From Elusimicrobiota bacterium (lineage in GTDB: Bacteria > Elusimicrobiota > Elusimicrobia > UBA1565 > UBA9628), in assembly GCA_016212825.1 (NCBI GenBank), contig JACRDS010000013.1, positions 31,677 to 95,676 of the forward strand: a stretch of 64,000 nt of DNA, read 5' to 3'. Under the pieces are notes generated by a model, which was given only the letters and a program-made list of their open reading frames with translations, was not told where the DNA came from and did no database searches. How positions within the stretch are numbered: the stretch's first letter is position 1; each line of letters begins with the position of its first letter. Shown here piece by piece: positions 12,368 to 52,990 of the stretch. The position numbers were made by a program, and so were the translations under genes.

Positions 12368-12717
12368 TATGCCGCATCCTTGCGAAACCGATGCCAGTTT
12401 AGCCCGGTTATCGTCGACGAATCGGCGCTTTTCAGCCGTCGTGCGTATGCTTCGAGTTTTTTTAAAAGGTCGATCTCCATCGTCAGTGAACCGACCTTCT
12501 CGCGAAGCTCCCGGACTTCTTTCTCCAGGCTTTTCTCTCGGACGGAGGGCTGGCCATCGAGCGCCCCATCTTTAAGCTGCTCGCGCCAACGGCTGATGGC
12601 TGTCGCCGAGATCGAATACTTCCGGGCGGCTCCCGTCAACGACACCTGCCCAGATTCGATCTCTGAAACGATATGCTTCTTCAACTCCGGCGGGAAAGAC
12701 CGTCTCTTCTTTGGCAT
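12367..12717 (-). CDS. IS3-family transposase OrfA (HTH)
   Basis: [17 protein letters not shown]...[18 protein letters not shown] is the IS3/IS911 HTH_Tnp_1 pattern. The leucine-zipper-like end contains the slippery site. Confidence 0.8.
12457..12463 (-). other. programmed -1 frameshift slippery heptamer A AAA AAA
   Basis: The minus strand reads TTA AAA AAA CTC in the orfA frame. The orfB frame is -1 relative to orfA (checked by coordinate arithmetic). Confidence 0.6.
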
Positions 12718-13066
12718 TTCCAGCTCCTTTTCAGCAGACATTTTACCATGCCTCCTTTCGGGAGCCGGTCTGAGGCCATCACAAAAACGACATCAATCTA
12801 TCCAGTCCAAGGGCGCAGTCCAGCCAGCATTTTGGTGCATATCTACAATCGTTCCATCTTGGTTGGGCCGCCGCTAACAAAATCCAGCGATGAGTGTTGG
12901 CTGCATATTCTTGGAGTCCTCCTATTTTCCGGCTACTTCATTGGCATTGGCATCGGGATTCTAGAGGTTCTTAAAGCACGACTTCTTTGTGCGCAATTTT
13001 CACGAGCCCATGGTCAGGCACCTCAATTCGGAGATAGTACAACGACTGGCATGAAGGAGCAGGGCG

Positions 13067-13798
13067 ATGATTAATTTGGGATCCCGACCGCCGAGTGTGA
13101 GGGGAAGTTTGTTCGCATTGATTGTGCTGGCCGTCCCTGGCTGGTCCGCAACTCCGCAAGCCGATTCAACCGATCTCCGCCGCCAGCAACTCATCAAGGC
13201 CCAGAACCTCGTCATCGTCGACGTCCGCGACCCCGACTCCTACGCCAAGGGCCACATCCAAGGCGCAAAAAGCATTCCCGCCCACTCCCTCGCAACAGCC
13301 CAACTCCCCCGCGACTCCCGGATCGTCATCTATTGCGGCGAAGACGCCTGCTCCCTCGGCGCCCAAGCCAGCCAAAGCCTCATCGCCGCAGGCTACACCA
13401 AGGTCCAGACTTTGGCCGGCGGCTTTGCCGACTGGCTCAAACACGGCTACCCCGCCCAGACCGGCACACCCAACACTCCCCAGGCCAAACACGACCGCAT
13501 CACCGCCAAAGCGGCCCAAGCTCGCCTCGACAAAGAACAGCTCATCCCCATCGATACCCGCCCCAGCCTCGAATACTTAGCCGGCCGCATACCCCGCAGC
13601 CGCAACATCCCATTGGAACAATTCGACGCCAACATCGCCGGCCTCGCCAAGGACAAGGAATACCTCGTCTACGACCGAGACCCCAAGCGCAGCAAGCTCG
13701 CCGCAGACAAGCTCATATCAGCCGGCTATAAGACCCTGGAACTCTCGGGCGGCTGGGCCGCCTGGGTCAAGACCAAGCAGCCCGTGGAGATCAGATAG
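13067..13798 (+). CDS. secreted tandem rhodanese-domain protein
   Basis: Signal peptide followed by two rhodanese-like domains. The first has a Cys loop (IYCGEDACS). The second has Asp in the catalytic position (VYDRDPKRS). Confidence 0.75.
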   Translation: MINLGSRPPSVRGSLFALIVLAVPGWSATPQADSTDLRRQQLIKAQNLVIVDVRDPDSYAKGHIQGAKSIPAHSLATAQLPRDSRIVIYCGEDACSLGAQASQSLIAAGYTKVQTLAGGFADWLKHGYPAQTGTPNTPQAKHDRITAKAAQARLDKEQLIPIDTRPSLEYLAGRIPRSRNIPLEQFDANIAGLAKDKEYLVYDRDPKRSKLAADKLISAGYKTLELSGGWAAWVKTKQPVEIR

Positions 13799-16700
13799 AT
13801 GAGCCCCAAAGGCCTTAGACGCCTCGGCCTCGCAAGCGCAGCTTCAGCGCTCTGCCTCGCCCTGCCCGTCATCAAGGCCCTCGGCCAGACCAACTCCCTG
13901 TGCGCCGTCGTCAAACTCGAGATCAAGCAACAGGCCACCCTGGAGCGCGAAGGCTTCGACGCCCATCTCGTCATAGAGAACAACGTCATAGACCAACCCC
14001 TCACCAGCCTCAAGGTCCAGATCTACTTCAAGGACGCCGAAGGCAACCCTGCGGACCAAAGCTTCTTCGTCAAGGTCGCCACACTCACCGGCACCAACGC
14101 CGTAGACGGCACCGGCGTCGTCCAATCCTCCGGCACAGCCGACATCCACTGGCTCATCATCCCCGCCGCCGGCGCAGGCGGCAACAACCCAGCCGGCCAC
14201 CGCTACGGCGTCAGCGCGCTCATCACCAGCGTATCCAATGGCGCGCCCCAATCCGTCAAGACCTTCGACGCCTACATCACCGTCCACCCCCAGCCCCTCA
14301 TCAAGCTCGAATACGCCCTGCCCTACGAAGTCTTTGGCGACGAGCCCATGACCGAAGGCAGCATTGAGCCTGTCGAGCCCTTCCCATTGGCCGCACGCGT
14401 CACCAACATCGGCTACGGCGCCGCCAACAACTTCCAGATAGAATCCGCCCAGCCAAAGATCGTTGAGAACAAGCAGGGCCTCCTCGTGGACTTCAAGCTC
14501 ATCGGCACCCAGGTGGGGGGCAAGACCATCCCCGACACCTTGCTCATCCCCTTCGGCGACATCCAGCCCGGCGCCGTCAGCCAAGCCTCCTGGCTCATGA
14601 CCGCCACTCTCTCCGGACGGTTCATCTCCTTCACATCCACCTTCAGCCACGCCGCCGAGTTGGGCGGCCAGCTCACCTCCCTCATGCAGAGCGTCACCAC
14701 TTATACGCTCCTTAGGGACGTGCTGGTGGACCTGCCCGGCCGCGACCAAGTTCCCGACTATCTGGTCAATACCAGCATGGACCGCGAAGCCATGCAGGAC
14801 CTCCTCAATAGCGGAAGCCAGCCTCCGGCCGAGTTGATATTGGAGTCCGACCAAGCCCAGCCCCTGCCCGTCACCGAAGTCCCAGGCAGCCTCTCCGGCG
14901 GCATCGGAGGCACTAGCGCGGCACTCACCTATACCATGACTGGGGCTGTCGGCTCCAACATCTGGGTGCACAGCTACGCTCCCTGGCCCTACGGAAAGAA
15001 CGTCGTCCTGGCCTATGCCAAGCGCGGCGACGGCAAGCTGCTCAACACCAAGAACGTCTGGATCTCCAAGCACTTCCGCAAGTCCGACCTCTCCACCATA
15101 TACTGGATCAACATTCTCGACCTCACCGGCTCGACCAACACCTACACCCTCCAATTCGACCCCGCCGGACTGGACCTGCCGCCCGGTGCGGTCACGGACC
15201 TGGCCGCGGCCACCTACCCAAGCGGCGGCAGTCTGGCCCTATCCTGGAGCTCTCCCGGCGAGGACGGCTACACAGGCCAGCTCTTCGGCGGCCACGTCTT
15301 CATCGACGCCCAGCTCAGTTCGGCCGCGGCTTTCTCCCCGGCCAACTCCCAGGTGCGCTTCGCCACCAGCGCCGCCGCCGGCGGCTCCCAGACTTATCTG
15401 GCATCTGGCTTTATCGGAAACGCCACCTACTATGCTGCCATCTTCATACAGGACACCGGTGGCGGCATGTCCGGCCTCTCCAACCTGGCCACGGCCTATA
15501 CCCTGCCCAATCCTCCGCTGAACCTGGCCATATCATCCGTGTCGGCCTTCTCCATCGCCGCCAACTGGCAGGTCGGCAACAACAGCCTGCCCGTCACCTA
15601 TAGCCTCGGCATCTCCACGGCCATGGGCGGCGCCATCGTGGCCGCAAGCCCGCCCCAGGACTCCTTCAACCGCAGCTACACCTTCACCGGCCTCTTGCCC
15701 GGCACCACTTACTTCATCTATGGCTCGGCCAAGAATCCCGACAGCAGCGTGACCTCGCCCTTCTCCTTCATGGGTTCCACCCAGACTTTGCCCGGCCCGC
15801 GCGATGCCTTGCCGCCCAGGACCGCTTTGGCCGTGAACAGCCCGTCCGCGACAGGGGCGGACAACGTCCTGATCGTAGGCCGCGTCTCCACGTTCACCTT
15901 GACCTCCCTCGATGACGCCCTGGCCGTGGGCGACGGCACGGGCATGGGCACGGCCTTCCAGGTCCTGGCCGTTGACGGAATGGTCCGGCCCACCTTCACC
16001 AACCCCAGCCCGGCCCCAGGCCAGGTCTTTGCCAGCACGTTCTCCTTGGCTTCTGAGGCGGACGGCCTCTATGTGCTCGCCTACCACGGTGAGGATAGCC
16101 TGGGCAACCGCGAGGATGTCCATCTGGCCACCGTGGCCGTGGACAACACTCCGCCTGCCGCAGTCCTCACTTCCCCATCTTCAGCCTGCCAGGGCCTCTG
16201 CGGCGTGGTCAAGGGACGGCTCGATGTTCGCGGCTCGGCGGCGGATGAGCATCTTGCCTATTGGAGCCTGGAGGTGTCCTCGGGCGCTGACTATGCGCTC
16301 ATCTCCTCGGGAACGGCCGCATCCTCAGGCACTTTGGCGGTCTGGGACACGGTCGGCCTCACCGGTTGGCAGACCCTGCGCCTCACAGCCGTTGACGCGG
16401 TCCTCAACGTTGCGGTAGCCACCGCCTCTGTGTTCCTGGGCGAGCCTTCCGCTACCCTCATCCTGGGCGACAATACCGTATTCAATAAGCCCGCAGGCGT
16501 GGCCGTGGGCATGGACGGCAAGATCTACGCGGCTGACGCCAACAACGACCGCGTGGCCGTGTTCAGTGCCACAGGGACCTTCCTGGCGTCCTTCACAGGA
16601 TTCAAGAAGCCCAAGGCTGTCGCGGTGGATGCTTCCGGCAGCATCTTCGTGGCCGATACCAACGGCAGCAGCTTGGTCAAGCTCTCCACCTCAGGCCAGA

Positions 16701-18109
16701 TTCTCATGGCCGTGGGCCGGACCAAGAAAAAGAATGAAGGCTTTATCCCAGGCTCCGGATCGGGCGAGTTCAACAAGCCCCAGGGCGTGGCCCTGGACGA
16801 GGCAGGCAACATCTACGTCTCGGACACCAACAACCACCGGGTGCAGAAGCTCGGGCCGGACGGCAGCTTCAAGCTGGCCTTCCAGCTGCCTCCGGCCCCG
16901 GCGTGGTCCGGTGATGAGGACGACGGTGCGGACAGCTCCGGGCTGGGCCGGCCCGTGGGCATCGCCTTGGACGCCGCAGGCAACATCTATACGGCAGACC
17001 AGGCAGGAAGCCGCATCCTGAAGTTCGACCCGGCCGGGCTCCTGCTGGCCAGTTTCGGCGTGGGCATCACCTCCAGCCCCTTGGGCGTTGCGGTGAGCAG
17101 TTCTGGCGACTGCCTCTTCGCCTCGGATTCAGGCCATGACCGCATACTGCGCTTTGACGCCTCCGGCGAACTCCTGCTCGAGTTCAGCCTGGGCTTCAAC
17201 AAGCCTGCGGGCTTGGCCTTTGACGCAGGCCAGAGCCTCTTCGTCGCTGACCGCAACAACAACCGCATCGTCAAGATTGGAGCGCCTGCCGGACAGGCCG
17301 CGAAGGTCGTTTCGGGAGGCGAGAAGAACAAGACGGTCAAGGGGCGCATCACCAAGCAAGCCGGCGGCAGGCTCGACCGCGAGGACAAGGCCGCAGTGCT
17401 CATCCCGGCCCAGGCCTTGGCCGAGGACCTGGAGATCACCATCTCCTCGCCCGTGCTGCGCAGCGAGCTTGAAGAAGCCCTCAAGGCTCGCAAGCTCGGC
17501 CAGGCCAGCTTGGTCTCGGTCTCCACCGGTGTGGAGTACGGCCCCGAAGGCACGGTGTTCAACGCTCCCGTGACCCTGGTCCTGCCGTACGACCCGGTCG
17601 CGGTGAGCGCGGCCGGCTTGCGCGAGGCCGATCTTAAGGTCCACTACTGGAACCGGGACAGGCAGGAGTGGGAGGTCCTGACTTCCATCGTAGATGCGGG
17701 CGGCCGCGTGGTCATGGCCCAGACAATGCATTTCTCGCTCTATGAGGTGCTTGGCTCAGGTTCAGGAATGGGCGTGGCGGCCGCGGCCGACGAGGCCTTC
17801 GGTTATCGCGACGTCTACGCTTTCCCGAACCCGGCCCGACGCAGCAACCCCGTCATCCGGACCCAGGTGGGTCTGGCCGATTCCGTGGACGTGAACATCT
17901 ACGACATAGCGGGCAAGCTGGTCGGCTCCGGCAGCCTGACGGGCAGCCAGGTCCTTGACGACGGCAACGGCAAGGGGCCGCAGTACACCTACGATTACCT
18001 TTGGGACACCTCGAACGTGGGTTCCGGGGTCTACATCTATGCTGTGACGGCCAGGAAGGCAGGCTATTCGCCCATACGCAAACAAGGGAAGGTCGGCATC
18101 CTGAAATAG
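13799..18109 (+). CDS. 1436-aa secreted surface protein with FN3-like domains, NHL repeats and a FlgD-Ig/T9SS-type C-terminal domain
   Basis: Signal peptide. Repeated NKP.GVA.D..G.IYV.D..N.R(V/I) NHL units. C-terminal YAFPNPAR...VNIYDIAGKLV...GVYIYAV...GKVGILK matches the CTD/FlgD-Ig pattern. The start abuts the rhodanese stop. Confidence 0.8.
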   Translation: MSPKGLRRLGLASAASALCLALPVIKALGQTNSLCAVVKLEIKQQATLEREGFDAHLVIENNVIDQPLTSLKVQIYFKDAEGNPADQSFFVKVATLTGTNAVDGTGVVQSSGTADIHWLIIPAAGAGGNNPAGHRYGVSALITSVSNGAPQSVKTFDAYITVHPQPLIKLEYALPYEVFGDEPMTEGSIEPVEPFPLAARVTNIGYGAANNFQIESAQPKIVENKQGLLVDFKLIGTQVGGKTIPDTLLIPFGDIQPGAVSQASWLMTATLSGRFISFTSTFSHAAELGGQLTSLMQSVTTYTLLRDVLVDLPGRDQVPDYLVNTSMDREAMQDLLNSGSQPPAELILESDQAQPLPVTEVPGSLSGGIGGTSAALTYTMTGAVGSNIWVHSYAPWPYGKNVVLAYAKRGDGKLLNTKNVWISKHFRKSDLSTIYWINILDLTGSTNTYTLQFDPAGLDLPPGAVTDLAAATYPSGGSLALSWSSPGEDGYTGQLFGGHVFIDAQLSSAAAFSPANSQVRFATSAAAGGSQTYLASGFIGNATYYAAIFIQDTGGGMSGLSNLATAYTLPNPPLNLAISSVSAFSIAANWQVGNNSLPVTYSLGISTAMGGAIVAASPPQDSFNRSYTFTGLLPGTTYFIYGSAKNPDSSVTSPFSFMGSTQTLPGPRDALPPRTALAVNSPSATGADNVLIVGRVSTFTLTSLDDALAVGDGTGMGTAFQVLAVDGMVRPTFTNPSPAPGQVFASTFSLASEADGLYVLAYHGEDSLGNREDVHLATVAVDNTPPAAVLTSPSSACQGLCGVVKGRLDVRGSAADEHLAYWSLEVSSGADYALISSGTAASSGTLAVWDTVGLTGWQTLRLTAVDAVLNVAVATASVFLGEPSATLILGDNTVFNKPAGVAVGMDGKIYAADANNDRVAVFSATGTFLASFTGFKKPKAVAVDASGSIFVADTNGSSLVKLSTSGQILMAVGRTKKKNEGFIPGSGSGEFNKPQGVALDEAGNIYVSDTNNHRVQKLGPDGSFKLAFQLPPAPAWSGDEDDGADSSGLGRPVGIALDAAGNIYTADQAGSRILKFDPAGLLLASFGVGITSSPLGVAVSSSGDCLFASDSGHDRILRFDASGELLLEFSLGFNKPAGLAFDAGQSLFVADRNNNRIVKIGAPAGQAAKVVSGGEKNKTVKGRITKQAGGRLDREDKAAVLIPAQALAEDLEITISSPVLRSELEEALKARKLGQASLVSVSTGVEYGPEGTVFNAPVTLVLPYDPVAVSAAGLREADLKVHYWNRDRQEWEVLTSIVDAGGRVVMAQTMHFSLYEVLGSGSGMGVAAAADEAFGYRDVYAFPNPARRSNPVIRTQVGLADSVDVNIYDIAGKLVGSGSLTGSQVLDDGNGKGPQYTYDYLWDTSNVGSGVYIYAVTARKAGYSPIRKQGKVGILK

Positions 18110-18110
18110 C

Positions 18111-19034
18111 ATGAAGATAACCACTCTCGCCTTGCTGGCGCTTCTGACGCCCGCGGCAGTCCGGGGCGGCGAGACCGCGGCCTTCCTCAAGCTGGGCGTA
18201 GGCGCCCGGGCCGTGGGCATGGGAGGAGCCTACACGGCCTTGGCCAACGACGTCAACGCCCTGGGCTGGAACCCGGCTGGGCTCTCCTCTCTGAATAAGC
18301 GGGAACTGGGCGCCATGCACGCGGAGCTGGCAGCGCAGACCCGCTACGACTTCATAGGCTATGCCCAGCCCGTCAAGTACGGCACCCTTGGAGTCGGTGC
18401 TGTTTACCTGAGCCATGGCGGGCTGGAAGGACGCAGTGAGACTGGTGCTCCCACCGGCACCTACGGCGCCTCGGACCAGGCCGTGAGCCTGGGACTGGCA
18501 TCCCGACTGGACGCGGGCCTGCGCCTGGGCGCCAACGTCAAGTACATCAGAAGCAGCATCGCAAATGTCTCGGCGCAGAGCTTCGCCTTGGATCTGGGTG
18601 GGCAGTACGCTTTGAAAGGAGTCCGGGGCCCGGGTCTGCCTTTGCTAGGCGTGTCGGTCCAGAACCTGGGCCCCGGGATGAAATACCTGGACCAGACCTC
18701 GCAACTGCCCCTGACCATGGCGGCCGGCATAGGCTATCAGTTGCCCGTGGGCCTCACCTTTGCCATGGACTTCAAGCACAGGCCCCATAGCCGTGATTCA
18801 GAGCTCAGTGTAGGCACTGAATACGCCCTGCTGGCAAACTTCGCCTTGCGGGCCGGCTATGCCACGCAGAAGGCCTACAACGGCACCCGCGCCTCGGCGG
18901 GGGGATTCTCGGCCTTGAGCGGCTTCGCGACCGGCCTGGGCTTCAAGATGAAGGCCTACAGTCTGGACTACGCCTTCACCCCTGCCGGCGAAATGGGCAA
19001 CGTGCAGAGGTTCTCCCTCGGCGCCAGGTGGTGA
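18111..19034 (+). CDS. PorV/PorQ-family (TraF_2-like) outer-membrane beta-barrel protein
   Basis: Signal peptide, then LGVGARAVGMGGAYTALANDVNALGWNPAGL, the family N-terminal signature. Alternating beta-strand pattern with a terminal aromatic residue. Confidence 0.7.
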   Translation: MKITTLALLALLTPAAVRGGETAAFLKLGVGARAVGMGGAYTALANDVNALGWNPAGLSSLNKRELGAMHAELAAQTRYDFIGYAQPVKYGTLGVGAVYLSHGGLEGRSETGAPTGTYGASDQAVSLGLASRLDAGLRLGANVKYIRSSIANVSAQSFALDLGGQYALKGVRGPGLPLLGVSVQNLGPGMKYLDQTSQLPLTMAAGIGYQLPVGLTFAMDFKHRPHSRDSELSVGTEYALLANFALRAGYATQKAYNGTRASAGGFSALSGFATGLGFKMKAYSLDYAFTPAGEMGNVQRFSLGARW

Positions 19035-19046
19035 TTGGGGCGGGCG

Positions 19047-20384
19047 TCAGGTTCCCTGCTTCTTCAGCGTGGAGTATAGCAACCTGTTCGATATCTTGAG
19101 ACTGGACAGCGTCTTGATCTTCTTTCCGTGGTTTTCCGCGAGATTCCTGCGGATGACCTCGCCGATAAAGCGGTCCACGGTCTCAGGCAGGCCGTGGTCC
19201 AGGGCATAGCGGTACCAGACATCGTCCACGCAGACCCCGTCGGCCGACGGTCTGCCTGAGTCCTGGGCCAGATGCCGCCGCACCTGCTCCAAGGTCACAT
19301 GCCCCTCGACGCCGGCGGCCAACAACTCCACGAACTTCTTCAACTCCCGGGTATTTCCCGGCCAAGCGTGTTCGAGCAGGCAAGCCTTGGCCTCCGGGGC
19401 GAAGGAAAGCCGCTTGCCGCCCCGGGTGAAGAATCTGACGAGGGGCAGGATATCGCACTTGCGCTGGTACAGCGGCTTGAGGTTCACCGTGAAGCCGTGG
19501 ATGCGCTGGAAGAAATCGAAGCGCAGCCGCCCTTGAGCGATCAGCTTCTGCAGATCCTCCAGAGTGGCGCTGATGATGCGGAACTCGGAGGACTCAGGTT
19601 GGTCGGACCCCACCGGATAGAATGAGCGCTCCTCGATGGCCTTCAAGAGCTTGGTCTGCATGTTCAGGCTCATGGACCCAATCTCGTCGAGGAACAGGGT
19701 GCCCTTGTGCGCCTGCAGGAGCTTGCCCTTGCGGCTGTCCGCGGCGCCGGTGAAGGCCCCCTTCCTGTAGCCGAAGAGCTCCGCCTCCAGCAACTCTTCG
19801 GTATAGGCGGAGCAGTTGATGGCCACGAAAGCGCCTGCCCTGCGGGAGTGCTCGTGGATGAGCTGGCCCAGGCTCGTCTTGCCGGTTCCCGACGGCCCCA
19901 GTATCAAGATCGGCAGGTCCGAAGGGGCATACTTGGCGGCCTCGACGATGCTGGCCCTGGTGGCCGGGTCCTCGGTGACGAACTGGCGGGTGAAGACGAA
20001 ATCGGCGTTGAAGCCGGTCTTGCTCTGCCGGTACTTGGCGATGACTTCGCCGACATTGGCCTCCTCGTTGCCCTTGGCGTAGAAATCCTTGCACCCGAGG
20101 GCGTAGGCCTGCGTGACCACCTCCTCGGACTCCGAGGAGGACATGACCACGGGATAGATGCCCTTCTTGGCCGCGCGTGGGATGACCTTCAGGCCCGAGC
20201 ACTCATGGTCGTCCTCGCCCAGACGCAGGTCGATGAAGCAGATGTCGAAGCCGCCGGCGTCGAGAGCGTGGGAAGCCGCAGCCAAGTCCCCGGCCAACGT
20301 CACATCATGGCTGCCCAGGTGCTTGGCCATCGCTTTTTGGGCCAGCTTGTCGTCCTCGACCACGAGAATCCTGAGCTTTTCCAT
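19047..20384 (-). CDS. sigma-54-dependent response regulator (NtrC-type bEBP)
   Basis: Receiver domain, AAA+ Walker A GPSGTGKT, GAFTGA loop, and C-terminal Fis-type HTH. Confidence 0.9.
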   Translation of the reverse strand: MEKLRILVVEDDKLAQKAMAKHLGSHDVTLAGDLAAASHALDAGGFDICFIDLRLGEDDHECSGLKVIPRAAKKGIYPVVMSSSESEEVVTQAYALGCKDFYAKGNEEANVGEVIAKYRQSKTGFNADFVFTRQFVTEDPATRASIVEAAKYAPSDLPILILGPSGTGKTSLGQLIHEHSRRAGAFVAINCSAYTEELLEAELFGYRKGAFTGAADSRKGKLLQAHKGTLFLDEIGSMSLNMQTKLLKAIEERSFYPVGSDQPESSEFRIISATLEDLQKLIAQGRLRFDFFQRIHGFTVNLKPLYQRKCDILPLVRFFTRGGKRLSFAPEAKACLLEHAWPGNTRELKKFVELLAAGVEGHVTLEQVRRHLAQDSGRPSADGVCVDDVWYRYALDHGLPETVDRFIGEVIRRNLAENHGKKIKTLSSLKISNRLLYSTLKKQGT

Positions 20385-20499
20385 GAATGCAGCCTCCGTT
20401 TGAGCGGCTATTCTTTCAAATGAGAGATGGCCCCCTATTATACCCCACTTCCCGGCATCAGCAGGGTGCTTTTCCGCGCAATCCTGCGAGCGCAGTCCA

Positions 20500-20515
20500 T
20501 GGCACTCCGATTGCT
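20500..20515 (+). promoter_or_regulatory. sigma-54 (-24/-12) promoter TGGCAC-N5-TTGCT
   Basis: TGGCACTCCGATTGCT has exact consensus spacing. It lies 50 nt upstream of the 38-aa ORF and next to the divergent bEBP gene. Confidence 0.65.
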
Positions 20516-20565
20516 CCGCAAGGGGTGCATGTCGGCCATGAAATCAAAAACACGGAGGATTACAA

Positions 20566-20682
20566 ATGAAGAACATCGGCTCGCTGATGCAGGAACTCGG
20601 TCTCAGGATGGACGCGCAGAGCGCCACGATCTCCGCCGAGGCCTTGGAGGACGTCGAGGTCAACAGCATCCGGAAATACTAG
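20566..20682 (+). CDS. 38-aa candidate RiPP precursor peptide (not in ORF track)
   Basis: MKNIGSLMQELGLRMDAQSATISAEALEDVEVNSIRKY. GGAGG SD lies 8 nt upstream. The ORF sits directly upstream of the ABC exporter and RRE-rSAM/SPASM genes. Confidence 0.55.
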   Translation: MKNIGSLMQELGLRMDAQSATISAEALEDVEVNSIRKY

Positions 20683-20752
20683 AGTATCGCCCGTGGGGAA
20701 CGGCGTTGGCGGCGGGAAAGCCCGCCAACGTCTCCCCGCGAGGAGAGCCGAT

Positions 20753-22090
20753 ATGAGGTCCGTCTTCCTGACGCGCTGCACGGGGCTGAGCCTGGCCTTT
20801 CTGTTCCTGGAGCAGGCCATAGTGGCCTCCTCGACCATCTGGCTCGCGTTGCTGGCCCGGGCAGTCACCGGAGGAGGGGATATCCTCCCTCCTTTCATCG
20901 GCTTCATGTGCAGTCTCACCTTGGTGTACGTCCCGTCCATCTTCATGCGGACCTTCCTCGCCAAGGCGAAGGTCGCGGCGCTCGAACGATACCTGGACCT
21001 CTGCATGAAAGGACTGCGCTGCGTACCGCATCTCTCCCGCAGCCAGGCGTTCCAGCGCGAGAAGCGCCCCGCCATCGAGACGGAGTCTTTCCTGGTGATC
21101 GACGAGGCCTTCGATTTCGCGCAGCTCTCGCTGAGCCTCATCCTCAACGTGGCGTTCAACGTGTCCGCGCTCTGCATCGCCTTCGGCGCGCAGCTCCTGT
21201 GGGCGTACCTGCTTACGGCGGTCCTGGGAGTGGCCCTGACCGCGGCTTCCTCCGGGAAGGCGCGCCGCGACTCCGCTGCCATGCAGAAGACGCGCGGCAG
21301 AGCCTACGGAGCGCTGGCCGGAGCCTGGGACGCCGTTACCCTCGGCAACGCCTACAACCTGGGGCTTTGGAAGGCGGACTTCGAGGGCAAGGCCGCGGAC
21401 TACAGCTCGAAGTCCGCGGCCGCGGTCCGCAATCTCGAGGCCCTGACGAGCATGACCTTGTGGGTCTCGGTCATCCCCGTTGCCGCGGTCATGGCGCATG
21501 GGATGTTCTCGCCGACTTCCGACGCCGCGTTGAAGACCATGATCCTGGCTACGTTCCCTCGCCAGATCCAGGTCATCCAGTACATCGCGGAGATCGTCAA
21601 CTGCCTGCTCAAAGGCAGCGCCATCCGCGAGCGCGTCAGCGCCCTTGACCGGGCCATGACCGTCGGCAGTGCGACCGACGGCATGACAGGCAGGGTCCAG
21701 GTGGAGCGGCTTTCATGCGTCGATGCCGAGGGCCGGCGCATCGGGCTGGAGGGATTCGAGCCGCCCAAGGCGGGCCGCCTCACCGTGAGGGGGGACAACG
21801 GCTCCGGGAAATCCACCTTGCTCCTGGATCTCAAGCGCCGTCGGCCGGAGGGGTCCATCATCCTTCCGGCCCACAACCGGCTGCGCTTCGCGTCCGTGGC
21901 GGACGGGGACCTCTCCACGGGCCAGCGGCTCAGCCGCATCATGGACGAACTCTGCGGCGTCGAACCCCTGAGCCTGGTCCTCCTGGACGAGTGGGACGCC
22001 AACCTGGACAAGGAGAACATGGGCAGGATAGACGCCATGATCGACCGGCTGGCGCGGCGCTGCTGCGTCATCGAGGTCCGGCACCGATAG
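20753..22090 (+). CDS. ABC transporter, fused permease/ATPase (compact NBD)
   Basis: N-terminal multi-helix TMD. Walker A GDNGSGKST, signature LSTGQ, Walker B LVLLDEWD. ATG at 20753 with AGGAG SD. Confidence 0.75.
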   Translation: MRSVFLTRCTGLSLAFLFLEQAIVASSTIWLALLARAVTGGGDILPPFIGFMCSLTLVYVPSIFMRTFLAKAKVAALERYLDLCMKGLRCVPHLSRSQAFQREKRPAIETESFLVIDEAFDFAQLSLSLILNVAFNVSALCIAFGAQLLWAYLLTAVLGVALTAASSGKARRDSAAMQKTRGRAYGALAGAWDAVTLGNAYNLGLWKADFEGKAADYSSKSAAAVRNLEALTSMTLWVSVIPVAAVMAHGMFSPTSDAALKTMILATFPRQIQVIQYIAEIVNCLLKGSAIRERVSALDRAMTVGSATDGMTGRVQVERLSCVDAEGRRIGLEGFEPPKAGRLTVRGDNGSGKSTLLLDLKRRRPEGSIILPAHNRLRFASVADGDLSTGQRLSRIMDELCGVEPLSLVLLDEWDANLDKENMGRIDAMIDRLARRCCVIEVRHR

Positions 22091-22098
22091 GAGGCCGC

Positions 22099-23496
22099 AT
22101 GCTCAAACTCATGGAGGACGGCGCCGTCCAGGAATGCCGGCGGCCCGGCCCGGCGCAGGCCGGCGGCGGGACGGCCTATCCCGTCTACCATAGAGACCTG
22201 CACGGCGGCATGCTGGCGGCCAACTCCTTCATGGACGAGGTCTGGTTCGTGGAGGGCGGCGAACTCCTCGCGCACGGCAGGGACGCCATCCTCTCCCGCC
22301 TCGCTCAGGGCCCGGCGCCGGAGGCCTTGATCCGGGAGGCCGCCCTGCGGACCCAACGGCTGAAGGAGGCCGCGCCTTACGAACTCGCTTTTTGCCCGAC
22401 CTATTCCTGCAACCTCAGATGCGCCTACTGCTATCAGCAATTCGACCCCACGCTCGACAAGCGGGTCGTCAGCGACGAGAACCTCTCCAAGTTCCTCGCC
22501 TACGCCGGCGGGATGATAGACAAAGTCCGCGCCGCGCGGCCCGAGCGCCCCGTCGTCCTCCAGTTCTTCGGCGGAGAGCCGTTCACCCGGCCCGCCAAGC
22601 CCGTCATCAAGAAGCTCTTCGAGTTCTGCCGCGAGAGGAAGGTCCACGTCGCGGTGACGACCAACGGCGTCGGGGTTGACGACTTCTTCGACATCCTCCT
22701 GCCCTACCACGGCTACATCGCCAAGGTCGGGGTCACTCTCGACGGGGTGGGGGAGTTCCACGACAGCCGGCGCAAGAGCCGCGACGGCCGGGACACCTTC
22801 GACGGGATCGTCCGCAACATCAACGTGCTCCTGCGCGCGGGCATCCGCGTCATGACCTCCCTGACGCTCGACAAGAGCAACCTCGGCCAAGCGGAGCGGT
22901 TCTTCGCCTTCGCCGAGGCCCAAGGCTGGAGCGACAACCCCCTGGTCGAGCTTTCCGTGGCTCGGGTGGACGACCGCAAGTACGAGACCGGATACGACGC
23001 CATCATGTCCGAGGCGCGGCTCTTCAAGGAGCTGCTCGACCTCAACAGCCGCAAGCCTTTCCCGGCGAACATCCGCTTCGCCTTCCTCAAGACCAGCCTC
23101 CCGCTGGCCGCGAGACTCCGCAGCGCCTTCAATCAGAACGAGGCGGGCCGCGACAAGTTCAGGTACTGCTGGTCCTGCTCCGGCCTGGACAGCATGGTCT
23201 ACGTCGATTCCGGGCTCGATGTCTACCGCTGCACCTACACCGTGGGCGACAAGAGGTTCCGGATCGGGACCCTGGCCGGAGGATTCTCCACCGAGGAATG
23301 GGAGAAGCACTGGACCTGGGGCCGCAGGGAATGCCGCGAATGCCCGATAGGGGGCTACTGCTCCGGCGGCTGCCGGCTATCCGCTCAGAAGGACTTCGAG
23401 CGCAACTGCCGGGAAGAAAAGGCCAACTTCGAATACCTCATAGAGCATGTCGTCGCCCCCAAGCTCGCCGGCATGCTTCCCGCCAAGGCCGCCTGA
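22099..23496 (+). CDS. radical SAM/SPASM peptide-modifying enzyme with N-terminal PqqD-like RRE
   Basis: CNLRCAYC is a CX3CX2C motif. C-terminal CWSC...C and CRECPIGGYCSGGC (CX2CX5CX3C) form the SPASM motif. About 85 aa N-terminal extension resembles a PqqD-type recognition element. Confidence 0.85.
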   Translation: MLKLMEDGAVQECRRPGPAQAGGGTAYPVYHRDLHGGMLAANSFMDEVWFVEGGELLAHGRDAILSRLAQGPAPEALIREAALRTQRLKEAAPYELAFCPTYSCNLRCAYCYQQFDPTLDKRVVSDENLSKFLAYAGGMIDKVRAARPERPVVLQFFGGEPFTRPAKPVIKKLFEFCRERKVHVAVTTNGVGVDDFFDILLPYHGYIAKVGVTLDGVGEFHDSRRKSRDGRDTFDGIVRNINVLLRAGIRVMTSLTLDKSNLGQAERFFAFAEAQGWSDNPLVELSVARVDDRKYETGYDAIMSEARLFKELLDLNSRKPFPANIRFAFLKTSLPLAARLRSAFNQNEAGRDKFRYCWSCSGLDSMVYVDSGLDVYRCTYTVGDKRFRIGTLAGGFSTEEWEKHWTWGRRECRECPIGGYCSGGCRLSAQKDFERNCREEKANFEYLIEHVVAPKLAGMLPAKAA

Positions 23497-23574
23497 CGCT
23501 TCCGGCCGTCCTGCATCTTCAAGGCGCACAGCTCTCCGTGCATCGCGCGGCGTACTCTTTCTCCCGCCGCCCCG

Positions 23575-23590
23575 TGGCATTCGGATTGCT
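23575..23590 (+). promoter_or_regulatory. second sigma-54 promoter TGGCAT-N5-TTGCT
   Basis: TGGCATTCGGATTGCTCCGCA is nearly identical to the 20500 promoter, including the shared GATTGCTCCGCA. Confidence 0.55.
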
Positions 23591-23673
23591 CCGCATCAGG
23601 TGAAGGCGCAAGCCTTCGACCTGTGTAGCTTGGGGAATCGGCCCCAGGGCATCCACGATCCCGCCGGAACGGG

Positions 23674-24186
23674 ATGAGACCACGGGAGAAGACCAAACTC
23701 GTTTCTCTCTTCCGTCCCGGCCGCAGGAAGGCCGGACCGGAAGCGGGAGACGCGCCGAGGGGTCAAATGGATACGAAAGAGCCTGTATGCGTACAAGCAG
23801 CGAATCGGTCCGCGGCCTGCGCGGCCAGCCGTCCGGGCCCGGCCGTGGAGGAGGTGATGCGCCGCCGGACCTCCAGGGAGCGATGGGTCATCCTGATGAG
23901 GCATGTCCGCGGCCAGTACCCGCACGGGATCATGTACGGGGTGAACGTCGCCGACGGCATCATCGTCTCCTGCGACAAGCTGCAGCCTTGCTTGTCCTTG
24001 GAGCCCTCCCCGGCGGCGGGCGACGGAGCCGGGAAGGCCTTCGACGCCAATTGGGAGAAGCTGGAAGCCCTGTGCGGACGCATGGGAACGGGGCGTCTGA
24101 GCGAACTGAGGTTCAACGAGGGAAGGCCCGTATCCGTGCTGCCCCCGGCGCGGGGCTGGAGGTTCGGACGCAGAACTGATAACTGA
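23674..24186 (+). CDS. hypothetical protein
   Basis: Track ORF downstream of the second sigma-54 promoter. Alternative start at 23767 (MDTKE). No domain recognised. Confidence 0.45.
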   Translation: MRPREKTKLVSLFRPGRRKAGPEAGDAPRGQMDTKEPVCVQAANRSAACAASRPGPAVEEVMRRRTSRERWVILMRHVRGQYPHGIMYGVNVADGIIVSCDKLQPCLSLEPSPAAGDGAGKAFDANWEKLEALCGRMGTGRLSELRFNEGRPVSVLPPARGWRFGRRTDN

Positions 24187-24452
24187 CGACGTTCGCGTAA
24201 AGATCGGGTCAAGGTTAAGTACGCAGTCACCCGTGCGGCCGAAAGGCCGCGCCTGGTCCCAATGAGGGGCGGGGTGAGATCCCCCAGGCTTCGTTGTGAA
24301 GCCAGCCGGCCGGTCCCCCGGGCATAAGTCCCGGCACGACGGCAAGGCGACAGGTACCGTCTTGGCAGGGCATCCAGGCTATGACCTGGAGCCTCAACCC
24401 TAGAATCATCCGCTGACCGAAGAACGGAGGCGGGTGGCAGGATGGTACCTAA

Positions 24453-25052
24453 ATGGCCTTTAAGAACACCGTTGCACCCGCCGTCGCCGTGCCCGCCTCA
24501 GAGAAGAACGCCGAGCTCGATCGGGAAGCCGCCGCAATCCTCGTCGACAGCCTGATCGAGGGCGCCGAGGAAGCCGTCCGCCAGGACTCCCACAGGGAGT
24601 TCTACGCCGCCAACCACAGCAAGGCCCTGGTCATCGCCCTCGCGGCGCTCAAGGACCGCTGCGAGGCTGAGGATGCCGTGGCGCAGACCTACGTGGAGCT
24701 CCTCAAGGGCCGCACCAGGCCCGCATGCTTCTTCCACGCGCTCAGGTGCAACATCCTCGACCGCAAACGCCGGCTGCGCCGCGAACAGTCTCTGTTTGAG
24801 CCGGCCGACCTAGCCTTCGATTCCAGGAACGCGTCCGGCGAGGACCGGCTGGCCGGGGGTGACAGCGAGGAGTTCGCGGCCGAGCCGGCGTCCCCGCAGC
24901 CGGAAGACCAGGACCCCTTGGCGATACTGGTCCAACGGGAGGAAGCCGCCGCGCGCCTTGCCATGGTGGAGCGCGCCATGGCCGACCCCCGGTGGCGGTA
25001 CGTCAAAGGCCGGAAGTGGGCGCGGCCGCTCGTCGGCGATGTGCGGAAATGA
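24453..25052 (+). CDS. hypothetical protein with sigma-70 region-2-like segment
   Basis: EFYAANHSKALVIALAALKDRCEAEDAVAQTYVELLKG resembles ECF sigma region 2. No clear region 4. First gene of the co-directional T4SS gene train. Confidence 0.45.
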   Translation: MAFKNTVAPAVAVPASEKNAELDREAAAILVDSLIEGAEEAVRQDSHREFYAANHSKALVIALAALKDRCEAEDAVAQTYVELLKGRTRPACFFHALRCNILDRKRRLRREQSLFEPADLAFDSRNASGEDRLAGGDSEEFAAEPASPQPEDQDPLAILVQREEAAARLAMVERAMADPRWRYVKGRKWARPLVGDVRK

Positions 25053-25166
25053 CGGGCTCAAGCGAATATTGTGTGCAGGGTGACTTTGCGGGCAGCCCGG
25101 TCGCCAGTCGGTGAAAACTCGGGGAGCAAATCCCCACCTGCCCGACAGAACGCAGGAGGTGGAAGA

Positions 25167-25709
25167 ATGGACCAGTCGGCGACGCGGACGTGCGGAAAGC
25201 CGGACATCGGGGATGGGGCGGGAAGGAAGCCGCGCTTCCTCAAGGTGCGGTTCTACCTGCCGCACCAGGACATGGTCAGCCTGGAGGAGGAGCGCCTCAG
25301 GCTCATCAAGGAGGGCCACGACGTGAGCCTCAGCAGGCTCATCTCCGAGGCCATCCGGCATCACATCCAGACCGGCCGGCGCCAAGCGGCGGGCGGCGCG
25401 GCCCTGGCCGCGCTGCTGGCCTTCGGCCTGTTGGCGCCGGGCCTGGCCGGGGCCCAGTCCTACGGCTCGCAGATCACGCAGGCAGGCCAGGCGCTCTACT
25501 CCTGGATCCGCAGCATCGGGGCCGTCATCCTGGCCATCGGCATCTCGGGGGCGGGTTTCCAGATGGCGGTGGCGCATGACCGGGAGGCCATGAAGAAGTT
25601 CTTCTACGTCATCCTGGGTGGGCTCATCGTGTTCCTGGCCCCTTCGTTCGTCTCCCTCATCCAGGGCGTGGCCGGTTCCGCGCAGTCGCTCAACATGTCG
25701 GGGCAGTGA
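25167..25709 (+). CDS. VirB2/TrbC-type pilin with N-terminal ribbon-helix-helix-like extension
   Basis: AGGAGG SD precedes the ATG at 25167. Residues ~25-68 fit an RHH pattern (KVRFYLP...VSLSRLISEAIRHHI). These are followed by the signal sequence ALAALLAFGLLAPGLAGA and two hydrophobic helices separated by AHDREAMKK, the VirB2 topology. Confidence 0.6.
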   Translation: MDQSATRTCGKPDIGDGAGRKPRFLKVRFYLPHQDMVSLEEERLRLIKEGHDVSLSRLISEAIRHHIQTGRRQAAGGAALAALLAFGLLAPGLAGAQSYGSQITQAGQALYSWIRSIGAVILAIGISGAGFQMAVAHDREAMKKFFYVILGGLIVFLAPSFVSLIQGVAGSAQSLNMSGQ

Positions 25710-25978
25710 GCGGGATGAACACCTACAAGGCGCTCGACTACCACCTCAAGACCTTCGGCTTCTGGCCTGGGGACTTGATCGGCACGTTCCTGGGCTTCTG
25801 CGTGGTCCACTGGGTCTTCAACAGCTTCCTGCTGGACCTGGTGGTAGTCGGGCCCTTGCTTTTCGCGGCGTTCAAGACGAGGAAGCGCGCTCCCGCCTAT
25901 GTCGGGTCGCTGTGGCGCTTCGCCACCACGGCCCGGCGCTTCAGCGTGGGGCTGGGCAGGGAGGGCTGCGGCCGATGA
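25706..25978 (+). CDS. VirB3/TrbD-like small membrane protein
   Basis: About 90 aa with a two-helix hydrophobic core. Its stop overlaps the VirB4 start (ATGA). The call rests on position and size. Confidence 0.55.
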   Translation: MSGMNTYKALDYHLKTFGFWPGDLIGTFLGFCVVHWVFNSFLLDLVVVGPLLFAAFKTRKRAPAYVGSLWRFATTARRFSVGLGREGCGR

Positions 25979-28425
25979 TTCTGCCTACCTTGACGCGCGA
26001 CTTGTTCCAGACCCGGCGCGAGCCCTGCGCGCACAACCTGCTCAACCTGTGGGCTCTGGAGGACGGAGCCTTGGTCGGCGTGGACCTGCAATACACCAAG
26101 CTCTTCAGGCTCACCTGTCCGGACGCCCTCTTCGCAAGCGAAGCGGAGCTGGAGCAGCACGCGGTGGCCCTCGGCCGCCTCCTTGACGGCCTGCCCGAGA
26201 ACTGCACGGCCCAGCTCATCGTCAGGGTGCGCTGGGACGCGGGCAGCAAGATCGAGGAGTACGCCTCCTACGAGCGGCCGGAGGGGGACATGCTGCGCTT
26301 CATCGTGGGCGCGAGGGTGGATTTCCTGCGGAAACTGCCGTTCAAGCGAGTGGAGCACTTCCTGGCCCTGAGCACCTATGCGGAGAAGACGGACCTCATG
26401 AAGCTGGGCCTGCGGCCCCTGGCGCTCAAGGTCCCGGACCTGGGCCGCGAGCTGGCCGGCCTGCATGAGCGCAGGATAGAGGGGCTCAGGAAAGTCTGCG
26501 CCACCGCCTCGGCCGCATTGCGCGACGCCAAGGTCGCGGCTTTGCCGCTCTCCGAGGCTGAGTCTTTGGCCTTCCTCTACGGCCGCCTCAATCCGGCCTT
26601 GGCCCAGCACACCCCGCCTCCGCCCCTGCGCAAGTCCGCGACCTTGCGCAGCCAGCTGGCGCTCAACGCCTGGGACTGCGGCTTCGACACCTTGACCGTG
26701 GACGGCCACCACCACCGGGCGGTCAACCTGGTGGTCAGGCCGGGCGGGCTCGACGGCCGGGCCATGGCCGCCTTGGCGGACCAGGTGCCGGGAGACTTCG
26801 ACCTGGTCATCGCCGTGCACAGCCTCTCGCAGGAGAAGGCGCAGCGCGAGGTGGAGTGGAACTCCACCTCGGCCGCGGTCATTGGCGGGCTGAGCATGTT
26901 CACACGCTACCACGAGGCCGACCTCAAGTGCGAGGACGCGGACGCCCTGCTGGCCCATGTGAAGTCCTCCTGCCAGAAGCTCTACCTCATGAGCTGCCAC
27001 CTGGTCCTGCGCGACGTGGACTTGAAGGCCCTGACGCGCAGCACGGACCAGGCCATCCAGGCCCTGCGCCGGCTCGACGACGCGGTGGGGGTGGTGGACG
27101 ACATGAACCACCTGCCGCTCTTCCTGGCGTCCTTGCCCGGCCATTCCCATCTCAATCCCCGCGCGCACCTGGTCCACACCGAGGCCGCGGCGCGCTTCCT
27201 GACCATGAGTTCGGGCTGGGACGGCTGTCCATGGCCGCAGTTCATGACCCCGGGAGACGACGGCAAGGCCTTGGGCATAGACCTCTTCTCCCCGGAGCTG
27301 ACCGCCAAGCACTCCCTCATCCTGGGGGTGTCCGGTGAGGGTAAGAGCGTGCTGACCAACTCGCTGCTGACCAGCTTCTTCAGCGCGGACGAGAGCCACA
27401 ACGTCATCGTCATAGACGACGGCGGCTCCTACAGGCGTCTGTGCGGCCTCTTGGGCGGGCAGTACCTTGAGCCCACCTTGGACGGCACCTACGCCTTCAA
27501 CCCCTTCCTGGCCCGCGAGTACGCCTTCGACGAAGCCGGCCGGCTCGACGCGGACTTCCTCTCCTTCATGACCTTGCTGGTCCAGCTCATGGTGCACAAG
27601 GCCGACCTGAGCAACAACCAGAAGTCCATCATCCAAAGGTGCGTGCTGGCGGCATACGAGAGCGGCAAGAGCCGGACCCCCATTCTGGCCGACCTGCGCG
27701 AAGCCTTCAGGGCCTTCCGGGGCGACGAGGAGGATGAGGCCCTGGCCCGGAGCTTCTACAAGGATCTGGACCTCTGGACCGAGGGCACCTACGGCCGGCT
27801 GCTCAACCGGCCGGGGACCTTCGACGCGGCCTCGCGCTTCATCGTCTTCGACCTCAACAAGATGACGCAGGAGGACCTCAAGCCCGTGCTCCTGCTCATT
27901 ATCAAGAGCGTCATCCATCCCAAGCTGGCGGACAAGAGCCTGCGCAAGGTGATCGCCTTGGACGAGGTGTGGAAGTTCCTGCGCGAGAAGGCCGGGGCCG
28001 ACCTGGCGGCCGAGTGGTACAAGACCGGCCGGCGCTTCAACGCCGCGGTCATGGTGGTCACCCAGTCGGCAGAGGACCTGCTGGCCAGCAAGGCGGCGGA
28101 GGCCATCACTCATAACTCCACGGTGAAGTGGATCCTCAACCTGGGCGGGGGCTACGAGAAGCTGGCGGACCTCAAGCTCTCGGCCGAAGAGATCGAGGCG
28201 GTCAAAAGCCTGGGCAAGAACGTGGACCGCTCGCGCTTCCGCAAGGTGTTCCTGCGCTTCGGCGAGCGCAAGGCCGTGATCCGCAACCAGCTCTCACCCA
28301 CCGAGTACTGGCTCTACACCACGGACCCCAACGACGTGAACCGGGAGGCCGCCCTGCGCGAGGCCCACCCGGAGTGGGGCGCGGTGGAGCTCCTGCGCGC
28401 TCTGGCCGGAGGGGCCCGTGCTTAG
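25975..28425 (+). CDS. virB4: type IV secretion ATPase VirB4/TrbE family
   Basis: 816 aa. Walker A GVSGEGKS, Walker B VIALDEVWKF, VVTQS motif, conserved N-terminal VirB4 architecture. Confidence 0.9.
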   Translation: MILPTLTRDLFQTRREPCAHNLLNLWALEDGALVGVDLQYTKLFRLTCPDALFASEAELEQHAVALGRLLDGLPENCTAQLIVRVRWDAGSKIEEYASYERPEGDMLRFIVGARVDFLRKLPFKRVEHFLALSTYAEKTDLMKLGLRPLALKVPDLGRELAGLHERRIEGLRKVCATASAALRDAKVAALPLSEAESLAFLYGRLNPALAQHTPPPPLRKSATLRSQLALNAWDCGFDTLTVDGHHHRAVNLVVRPGGLDGRAMAALADQVPGDFDLVIAVHSLSQEKAQREVEWNSTSAAVIGGLSMFTRYHEADLKCEDADALLAHVKSSCQKLYLMSCHLVLRDVDLKALTRSTDQAIQALRRLDDAVGVVDDMNHLPLFLASLPGHSHLNPRAHLVHTEAAARFLTMSSGWDGCPWPQFMTPGDDGKALGIDLFSPELTAKHSLILGVSGEGKSVLTNSLLTSFFSADESHNVIVIDDGGSYRRLCGLLGGQYLEPTLDGTYAFNPFLAREYAFDEAGRLDADFLSFMTLLVQLMVHKADLSNNQKSIIQRCVLAAYESGKSRTPILADLREAFRAFRGDEEDEALARSFYKDLDLWTEGTYGRLLNRPGTFDAASRFIVFDLNKMTQEDLKPVLLLIIKSVIHPKLADKSLRKVIALDEVWKFLREKAGADLAAEWYKTGRRFNAAVMVVTQSAEDLLASKAAEAITHNSTVKWILNLGGGYEKLADLKLSAEEIEAVKSLGKNVDRSRFRKVFLRFGERKAVIRNQLSPTEYWLYTTDPNDVNREAALREAHPEWGAVELLRALAGGARA

Positions 28426-29272: not shown

Positions 29273-29273
29273 C

Positions 29274-30266: not shown

Positions 30267-30268
30267 CC

Positions 30269-40616: not shown

Positions 40617-40653
40617 GCCGACGTAGCTCAGCGGTAGAGCAACCGCCTTGTAA
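40617..40653 (+). repeat. attR core (37 bp, 5' half of the intact tRNA-Thr)
   Basis: Identical to 5590-5626. Confidence 0.85.
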
Positions 40654-52921: not shown

Positions 52922-52990
52922 CCTATTAGCTCTTTTATTTGGGCTGGACGACAAATGGCACACGGTCTGCTTCAGGCAGGCCCCCAGAGG

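Follow-up and report, generated by a model that had tools for sequence, protein, structure and literature searches.

The DNA analysed here (the window) is a stretch of 64,000 nucleotides from contig JACRDS010000013.1 of an Elusimicrobiota bacterium (assembly GCA_016212825.1). It holds a small gene for a 38-residue peptide, MKNIGSLMQELGLRMDAQSATISAEALEDVEVNSIRKY, which is conserved, well signalled and the first of three genes encoding this precursor, an ATP-binding cassette (ABC)-like exporter and a radical S-adenosylmethionine (SAM)/SPASM maturase. We propose, as the probable reading, that the peptide is the precursor of a ryptide-like ribosomally synthesised, post-translationally modified peptide (RiPP), in which R36 and the C-terminal Tyr38 are cross-linked in an R-x-Y register. 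The Arg-Tyr cross-link is favoured because NF040899, the ryptide maturase family, is the closest family of the enzyme by a wide margin and because all the intermediate relatives have precursors with R(x)Y ends. In its workings the locus resembles a ryptide system, yet its enzyme falls outside the curated family, and we regard it as probably an unannotated variant of the known ryptide class rather than the site of a new chemistry.

The precursor gene and its conservation

The first-pass annotation had pointed to this open reading frame (ORF) as a candidate precursor of 38 amino acids, free of Cys and Trp and ending in RKY, and the translation agrees: neither Cys nor Trp occurs, residues 1-32 include six acidic and two basic ones, and R36-K37-Y38 forms the end. 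The ORF is placed in an intergenic gap, with a divergent regulator gene on one side and the ABC-like gene on the other, and follows a Shine-Dalgarno sequence (Table 1); in the relatives, a site of the GGAG type takes the equivalent position before the precursor start. The G+C fraction at codon positions 1, 2 and 3 is 0.53, 0.34 and 0.92 in the peptide gene, 0.62, 0.47 and 0.89 in the ABC-like gene and 0.63, 0.45 and 0.90 in the radical SAM gene. The third-position bias of the ORF is thus that of the two genes that follow it, which argues for a real gene. All three share a strand and are separated by short gaps, the layout of an operon of precursor, radical SAM enzyme and transporter.

A word-indexed search for relatives of the radical SAM enzyme gave nine further proteins of 56-74% identity, one of them (locus L006) from Elusimicrobia bacterium RBG_16_66_12. 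In all the contigs of these relatives that reach far enough, an ORF of 36-38 amino acids precedes the ABC-like gene. The homologous peptide stands beside homologous ABC-like and radical SAM genes at loci L001-L004, L006-L008, L095, L102 and L103, and L106, a short contig ending within the ABC-like gene, has the peptide and the ABC-like gene only. The claim of the first-pass annotation that the ORF is a RiPP precursor is borne out in this way, a similar ORF being found in every related cluster whose precursor-side flank is on the contig; the refuting case named there, homologous clusters that lack one, did not arise.

The precursors of these loci end in ...VEVNSIRIY (L001/L002), ...VMVNTVRLY (L003/L004), ...VVVNTVRQY (L006, uncalled by the depositors), ...VELETVRQY (L007/L008) and ...IEVETVRQY (L095). 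In L095 the precursor gene occurs twice in tandem, as identical copies at 3262-3372 and 3415-3525 that each have a ribosome-binding site of their own. A profile search of 5.8 billion proteins, for which the peptides were padded with two artificial N-terminal Gly residues because of the minimum length of the tool, returned nine clusters of homologues of 36-38 amino acids, all ending in [ST][IV]R[KILQ]Y, and none of the nine bears an informative name. We found no description of the [IV]-R-x-Y clade in the searchable literature.

All 11 distinct sequences of the clade (36-38 amino acids) end in [S/T][I/V]-R-x-Y. Their alignment, which the first-pass annotation had suggested as a check, reveals M1, L7, M8, G12, E25, L27, R36 and Y38 as invariant; [ST]34 and [IV]35 are also conserved, and position 37 is variable (K, I, L or Q). 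Length, start, stop and C-terminal motif are kept across loci whose radical SAM enzymes share just 56-74% identity. Cys occurs in a few of the relatives, in the leader region only (position 5, 24 or 26), and is not conserved. The N-terminal part of the peptide, earlier read as a leader, does appear leader-like, given the conserved pattern L7-M8..G12..E25.L27 and the predicted domain of the RiPP recognition element (RRE) type in the modelled enzyme.

The maturase and its kinship to ryptide enzymes

The 465-residue maturase has NF040899 ("radical SAM/SPASM ryptide class RiPP maturase") as its best NCBIfam match (221.2 bits, E 2.1e-65), spanning model positions 98-457 of 464. This family is ahead of any other by more than 125 bits, the next matches being CefB (93 bits), PapB (84), SCIFF (69), MftC (55.5), GrrM/OscB (49) and YhhB (46). 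The Pfam Radical_SAM domain is matched at 6e-15. Invariant in 14 sequences are the radical SAM motif CxxxCxxC (C104, C108 and C111) and the Cys residues C357, C378, C412, C415, C421, C425 and C437 of the SPASM region. The AlphaFold2 (AF2) model of the enzyme, built with 14 homologues (pLDDT 85), predicts a small N-terminal domain of three strands and three helices (residues 30-91), followed by the radical SAM barrel and the SPASM domain, and its best folds in the PDB over the full length are CteB and SuiB, with E from 1e-14 to 5e-17 and about 460-480 columns aligned. The protein thus belongs with the radical SAM/SPASM maturases that have a fused RRE: the CxxxCxxC motif, a SPASM region of seven Cys residues and a predicted leader-binding domain at the N-terminus.

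The relatives of the enzyme score 158-421 bits against NF040899, in a continuum that leads up to protein P0126 at 845 bits, and no other model is comparable; among the more distant ones the scores climb step by step, from 208 to 421 bits; all enzymes of the window's own clade lie below the cut-off of the family. The 90% cluster of P0126 includes a maturase of Amygdalobacter indicium that NCBI names as ryptide-class. In a phmmer search of 1.84 billion representatives, which held one representative of the window's clade, about 45 representatives were found with E <1e-45, and P0126 was matched by the window enzyme with 30% identity (E 6e-56). In a neighbour-joining tree (no bootstrap), the NF040899-like enzymes stand together, apart from the outgroups, and the window's clade forms its own branch. 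These comparisons place the maturase in one clade with the ryptide maturases of NF040899, at a score far short of the cut-off of that family. Enzymes of its own family are rare. When contigs were scanned with the radical SAM alignment (generic CxxxCxxC/SPASM patterns), the best among the matches listed had at most 27% identity and no close relative appeared.

Precursors across the wider enzyme clade

The locus of P0126, L097, which is positive for NF040899, has a 41-residue ORF ending in ...GEPIIRRRY; its length and its RRR motif match RrrA as described (PMC9389541). Other members of the wider clade are accompanied by peptides with ...SHRRY (P0121), ...GPRRY (P0012 and L111) and ...QERRMY (P0011) at their ends, or with a near-terminal Tyr as in ...HRRYSLVA (P0014), ...PRRYGVSVTK (P0015) and ...SRRYVTTL (P0116, Clostridium bornimense). 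A sister group ends in -SIRY (L118), -AIRY (L119) and -PIRY (L131 and L169); these precursors are 43-51 amino acids long and are encoded at L118 3072-3203, L119 1027-1170, L131 1348-1503 and L169 2928-3065. The -IRY clusters have the order peptide, radical SAM gene, ABC-like gene, with an exporter of the same kind as that of the window, and their radical SAM enzymes also have NF040899 as the best family (158-219 bits). Arg is found at -1 and/or -2 from the Tyr in 12/12 of the wider-clade precursors collected. What the precursor cores of the whole enzyme clade have in common is an Arg that precedes a terminal or near-terminal Tyr by one or two residues, and the window peptide has the pair that is cross-linked in ryptides, an Arg close to a C-terminal Tyr.

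Table 1 Features of the precursor cluster and of its borders in the window
Feature	Coordinates	Strand	Evidence
Sigma-54-dependent response regulator (REC, AAA+ sigma-54 activator, lid)	19047..20384	-	Pfam Sigma54_activat 5e-57, Response_reg 5e-9
Perfect sigma-54 -24/-12 element TGGCAC-N5-TTGC	20500..20514	+	Pattern search; 66 nt upstream of precursor ATG
Shine-Dalgarno GGAGG	20554..20558	+	Sequence inspection; 7 nt 5' of ATG
38-aa precursor peptide gene plus stop	20566..20682	+	ORF translation, homologues, alignment, GC3 0.92
Codons R36-K37-Y38, predicted modification site	20671..20679	+	11-sequence clade alignment; maturase kinship to ryptide enzyme
Strong RNA hairpin, interval between precursor and ABC-like genes	20687..20746	+	-41.4 kcal/mol, z = -3.9, 0/200 shuffles as stable
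445-aa ABC-like exporter (predicted); about 5-6 transmembrane segments, then shortened nucleotide-binding domain	20753..22090	+	Motifs and hydropathy
465-aa radical SAM/SPASM peptide maturase, N-terminal RRE-like domain, distant RrrB-like	22099..23496	+	NF040899, Pfam Radical_SAM, Cys motifs, AF2 model
Second sigma-54-like -24/-12 element TGGCATTCGGATTGC	23575-23589	+	Sigma-54 pattern search
2dG-II purine-class riboswitch aptamer RF03165, full-length	23618-23688	+	74.9 bits vs gathering 60, E 1e-17

Proposed chemistry

RrrB, the streptococcal ryptide maturase, forms a bond near the C-terminal end of a 41-mer between a side-chain carbon of Arg and the carbon of the Tyr ring that is ortho to the hydroxyl; it rejects Arg-to-Lys and Tyr-to-Phe variants and takes substrates truncated at the N-terminus (PMC7670169, PMC9389541). 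The streptococcal rrr operon is made up of a peptide, an enzyme of the radical SAM type and a transporter (PMC12445099).

By analogy, we propose that the adjacent response regulator would activate the sigma-54 promoter at 20500-20514, and that the hairpin 3' of the stop codon would hold the precursor transcripts in excess. The N-terminal RRE-type domain of the enzyme may bind the leader through the conserved LMxE.G...E.L pattern. A 5'-deoxyadenosyl radical would then take a side-chain hydrogen from Arg36 (C-delta or C-gamma is reported for RrrB), and the resulting carbon radical would add to Tyr38 at the ring position ortho to its hydroxyl group. With the auxiliary SPASM cluster accepting an electron, the product would be a C-terminal Arg-x-Tyr cyclophane, lighter by 2 Da and with a variable middle residue. 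A protease would remove the leader, and the product would exit through the ABC-like protein; the gene content of the cluster includes no protease. In most relatives a methylation would come on top. Gene content, kinship of the enzyme and conservation of the motif are observed here; the reaction itself we infer.

An Arg-x-Tyr ring would be 14-membered if formed through C-delta and 13-membered if formed through C-gamma, against the 16-membered ring reported for the ryptide (PMC9389541). If the ryptide link is made at the -3 Arg of RRRY, the ring of the window peptide would be smaller than that of the published ryptide. We entertain, tentatively and with more doubt than conviction, the idea that the [IV]-R-x-Y clade forms a macrocycle unlike the published one, namely a three-residue Arg-x-Tyr cyclophane with a free C-terminus and a variable ring residue, further methylated in most relatives; no earlier RiPP of the ryptide type would then come from beyond the Firmicutes or be under sigma-54/two-component control. 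If this were true, the [IV]-R-x-Y and -IRY clades would represent one enzyme family in which ring size is set by the spacing between Arg and Tyr.

Several observations weigh against a ryptide-type Arg-Tyr link. The maturase attains about a third of the NF040899 cut-off of 600 bits, its N-terminal 93 residues do not align to the model, and it is 30% identical to a true member of the family, a distance at which SPASM maturases can switch chemistry. The Arg keeps no uniform register: it lies at -2 in the clade of the window and at -1 in the -IRY clade, and precursors of the RRY and RRRY types have one at each position. A hidden Markov model (HMM) of the clade's precursors gave no match to the outgroup precursors, and homology of the precursors beyond the clade is only suggestive, as is the apparent leader similarity of clade and outgroup precursors in a MAFFT alignment. 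Reviews are split on the Arg carbon that is linked, naming either C-delta (PMC7670169, PMC11851443) or C-gamma, in the 16-membered ring (PMC9389541). The ABC-like family, finally, occurs mostly without this radical SAM enzyme: it is found at 10/80 of the best ABC-like loci, and at L104 (5001-8121) a 59%-identical copy of the ABC-like gene, with neither peptide nor radical SAM gene, has genes for a standard ABC ATPase and for an ABC-2-type permease behind it.

Some of these points feed the rather unlikely alternative that the peptide is a genuine radical SAM precursor in which the C-terminal reaction is other than the ryptide C-C link, for example an Arg-Tyr ether or C-N bond, a bond between Tyr and the conserved Ile/Val35 or Ser/Thr34, a hydroxylation, an epimerisation or the oxidative decarboxylation of the terminal Tyr. 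The distance to the true ryptide maturase (30% identity, 221 bits under a cut-off of 600) leaves room for it, as do the varying R-to-Y spacing between clades and the conservation of [ST]34 and [IV]35; the methyltransferase of the relatives points to further tailoring, and the related enzymes DarE and XncB switch between C-C and ether products under the control of the substrate (PMC11851443). However, Arg and Tyr are the sole core residues common to every clade, the enzymes form a single clade with the true ryptide maturase, and MftC, the PqqE-type enzymes and the families that make three-residue cyclophanes score far under NF040899. The chemistry, which the first-pass annotation had left open, is less so now: NF040899 stands at 221 bits and the next family at 93, the precursor of the true member ends in -RRRY and those of the intermediate relatives in R(x)Y. 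Among the options then listed, the Arg-Tyr coupling of the ryptides is the one favoured, although the register of R and Y and the membership of the family differ from it.

Two further alternatives concern the gene and the cluster rather than the reaction. That the window cluster is decaying or non-functional, with no mature product made here, is improbable. It would fit the absence of the methyltransferase that most relatives have and the position of the cluster, which abuts foreign DNA with an unknown ORF led by a riboswitch and with type IV secretion genes about 2 kb downstream; a precedent is the database protein P0017, in which a radical SAM enzyme lacking residues ~99-410 is fused in frame to the methyltransferase and which looks like a decayed cluster, a sign that clusters of this type do decay. 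The precursor, ABC-like and radical SAM ORFs of the window are nevertheless intact and full length, with every invariant Cys residue and motif in place, no damage is seen in the promoter, the ribosome-binding site or the hairpin either, and L006 likewise has only an apparently truncated methyltransferase-like ORF. That the peptide frame is an untranslated chance ORF in an intergenic leader region is scarcely credible. Frames of similar size are frequent by chance in this GC-rich DNA of about 65% G+C (166 ORFs of at least 30 amino acids overlap 12000-32000, and size alone makes this one unremarkable), the pairwise dN/dS among relatives (0.3-1.2) is indecisive and weakly informative for so short a gene, and the L006 homologue went uncalled in a public genome. 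Against this stand the length, start, stop and C-terminal motif kept over enzymes that are 56-74% identical, the third-position G+C of 0.92, the ribosome-binding site, the duplication of the whole gene in tandem in L095 and an analogous ORF beside every enzyme of the wider clade, and conservation effectively refutes a chance origin.

Comparison with known systems

Among known systems the ryptides (the RRR subfamily of streptococcal radical SAM RiPPs, RaS-RiPPs, with RrrA, RrrB and NF040899) are the nearest. The best enzyme family and the clade are the same, the precursor is short in both (38 amino acids here, 41 there) and closes on a Tyr that an Arg shortly precedes, and the list of parts is identical, consisting of peptide, radical SAM enzyme and transporter (PMC12445099), with a separate RRE protein in neither. 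The motif differs, I-R-K-Y in the window and [IV]-R-[KILQ]-Y in its clade standing against RRR-Y, so the triple Arg is absent. The leader differs as well, and the N-terminal domain of the window enzyme stays unaligned. The gene order of the window (peptide, transporter, radical SAM gene) departs from that of the relatives, and its transporter is ABC-like with a short ATPase domain instead of one of the major facilitator superfamily (MFS) or a standard ABC type. A sigma-54 promoter together with a response regulator takes the place of control by shp/rgg quorum sensing, and no shp/rgg pair adjoins the precursor. The host is of the high-GC Elusimicrobia type and not a Firmicute, and relatives carry an associated methyltransferase.

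SuiB (streptide) and the sactisynthase CteB (solved structures 5V1T and 5WHY) have the same RRE-radical SAM-SPASM layout with seven SPASM Cys residues. Their sequence identity to the window enzyme is just 16-19%, and their substrates have Lys/Trp or Cys, whereas the window peptide has neither Cys nor Trp. The triceptides (XyeB, GrrM/OscB, YhhB) resemble what is proposed here in their three-residue ring, which connects an aromatic residue to an aliphatic side-chain carbon as an R-x-Y link would. A triceptide type was rejected: the aromatic residue is last and not first, there is a single terminal motif in place of repeats, and GrrM/OscB reaches 49 bits where its cut-off is 310, YhhB 46 where it is 445.

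The first-pass annotation had argued against sactipeptide or ranthipeptide chemistry and had seen no exact match to the motifs of mycofactocin and pyrroloquinoline quinone (PQQ); the NCBIfam scores of the enzyme and the peptide motif make all of these poor fits, and they were rejected. The window peptide is free of Cys, and PapB, SCIFF and CefB, at 84, 69 and 93 bits, are far below their cut-offs, by which a sactipeptide or ranthipeptide is set aside. Mycofactocin (MftA/MftC) shares a short precursor ending in Tyr and a radical SAM/SPASM enzyme; TIGR03962 scores 55.5 bits against a cut-off of 265 and the peptide ends in -RKY, not -GVY. Neither the called neighbours of the related loci nor the ORFs scanned around the window's cluster contain domains of the MftB, MftD, MftE or MftF type, an exporter being present instead. 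The PQQ system (PqqA with E-x-x-x-Y, and PqqE) likewise has a radical SAM/SPASM enzyme acting on a Tyr of a short peptide. The PqqE model is absent from the best 25 NCBIfam families of the window enzyme, E31 is replaced by M or V in the relatives so that no Glu-Tyr spacing is fixed, and the locus has no pqqB, pqqC or pqqD genes.

To our knowledge, a single biochemical study, carried out in streptococci, has described ryptides, and what they do is unknown. The present locus extends a known class beyond the Firmicutes and adds no new class, and its value lies chiefly with RiPP specialists and with annotation. The ryptide-type enzyme family and precursors terminated by Arg and Tyr reach environmental bacteria that are uncultured and of high GC, in which the annotation models now in use overlook them. 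The natural series of R-Y, R-x-Y and RRRY spacings offers a ready means of testing what determines ring size in a radical SAM cyclase, and the conserved sigma-54 promoter with its response regulator is a handle on the timing of peptide production.

Control of the precursor gene

The regulator divergent from the precursor gene matches NCBIfam models of the NtrC/AtoC type, every one below its cut-off, and is 57.5% identical to the divergent regulator at the equivalent position in L006; it is likely the activator of the precursor promoter. In L006, a 346-residue protein with a sigma-54 DNA-binding domain (677-1717, minus strand) lies just past the response regulator and may be an RpoN paralogue associated with the cluster. 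The sigma-54 pattern that is perfect ahead of the precursor occurs three times in the window, where chance would give 0.29, and 0/100 shuffles reach three. The element also occurs upstream of the precursor in L003, L007 and L095, in L001 as GGCAC-N5-TTGC and in L006 in degenerate form. The third exact match, TGGCACTGCTGTTGC, is at 34938-34952 (+), in the region of the conjugation genes.

The hairpin between the precursor and the ABC-like gene is kept in L001, L003 and L006, with compensatory changes in 3/18 pairs, and L007 and L095 have a terminator-like hairpin with a T-run at the equivalent position. A hairpin after the precursor is a common arrangement in RiPP clusters that keeps precursor mRNA in excess. 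That of the window likely serves as an attenuator or an RNA stabiliser that favours the precursor over the enzyme transcripts.

Exporter, methyltransferase and neighbouring DNA

The ABC-like protein has a Walker A motif at 347, the signature LSTGQ at 387, Walker B at 408 and His444. Its matches in Pfam and NCBIfam are just weak ABC ones (CydD, PrtD, MsbA), and a sequence search of the PDB gave nothing significant. Only about 33 residues separate Walker A from the signature motif, a spacing that suggests a much reduced helical subdomain. The protein co-varies with the radical SAM enzyme across loci (75/66/58/34% identity). Its family is widespread and lacks a Pfam model, with 154 relatives in the metagenome scan; the neighbours of 80 such loci (L102-L181), when clustered, were heterogeneous and showed no common partner.

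A class I SAM methyltransferase gene follows the radical SAM gene in L001, L003-L005, L007-L008 and L095-L096, often with overlapping stop and start codons (L001 6717-7412, L003 4235-5017, L007 7368-8165, L095 6408-7208). A remnant of it was sought near the window cluster and none was found.

The region of the second sigma-54-like element and of the riboswitch (23575-23688) starts about 80 nt past the stop codon of the radical SAM gene. Downstream of the riboswitch, an ORF of up to 170 amino acids (23674-24186) has no Pfam match and no counterpart in the related loci. A search with Rfam found nothing in 14 related loci, and on that ground the riboswitch does not belong to the peptide system. 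Genes for conjugation and type IV secretion lie at 25618-28425 and 36876-38765, including a TraC/VirB4-like ATPase and a coupling protein of the TrwB/TraD type, and a tRNA-Thr(TGT) at 40617-40688 comes after them; these genes suggest that an integrated conjugative element begins about 2 kb downstream of the peptide cluster.

Upstream of the cluster, the window encodes a 1436-residue NHL-repeat protein at 13799-18109 (+). Farther downstream are a c-di-GMP-I riboswitch aptamer, RF01051, at 52986-53081 (+), with 46.8 bits against a gathering threshold of 35, and a bacterial serpin at 58026-59252 (+), which matches Pfam Serpin at 2e-118.

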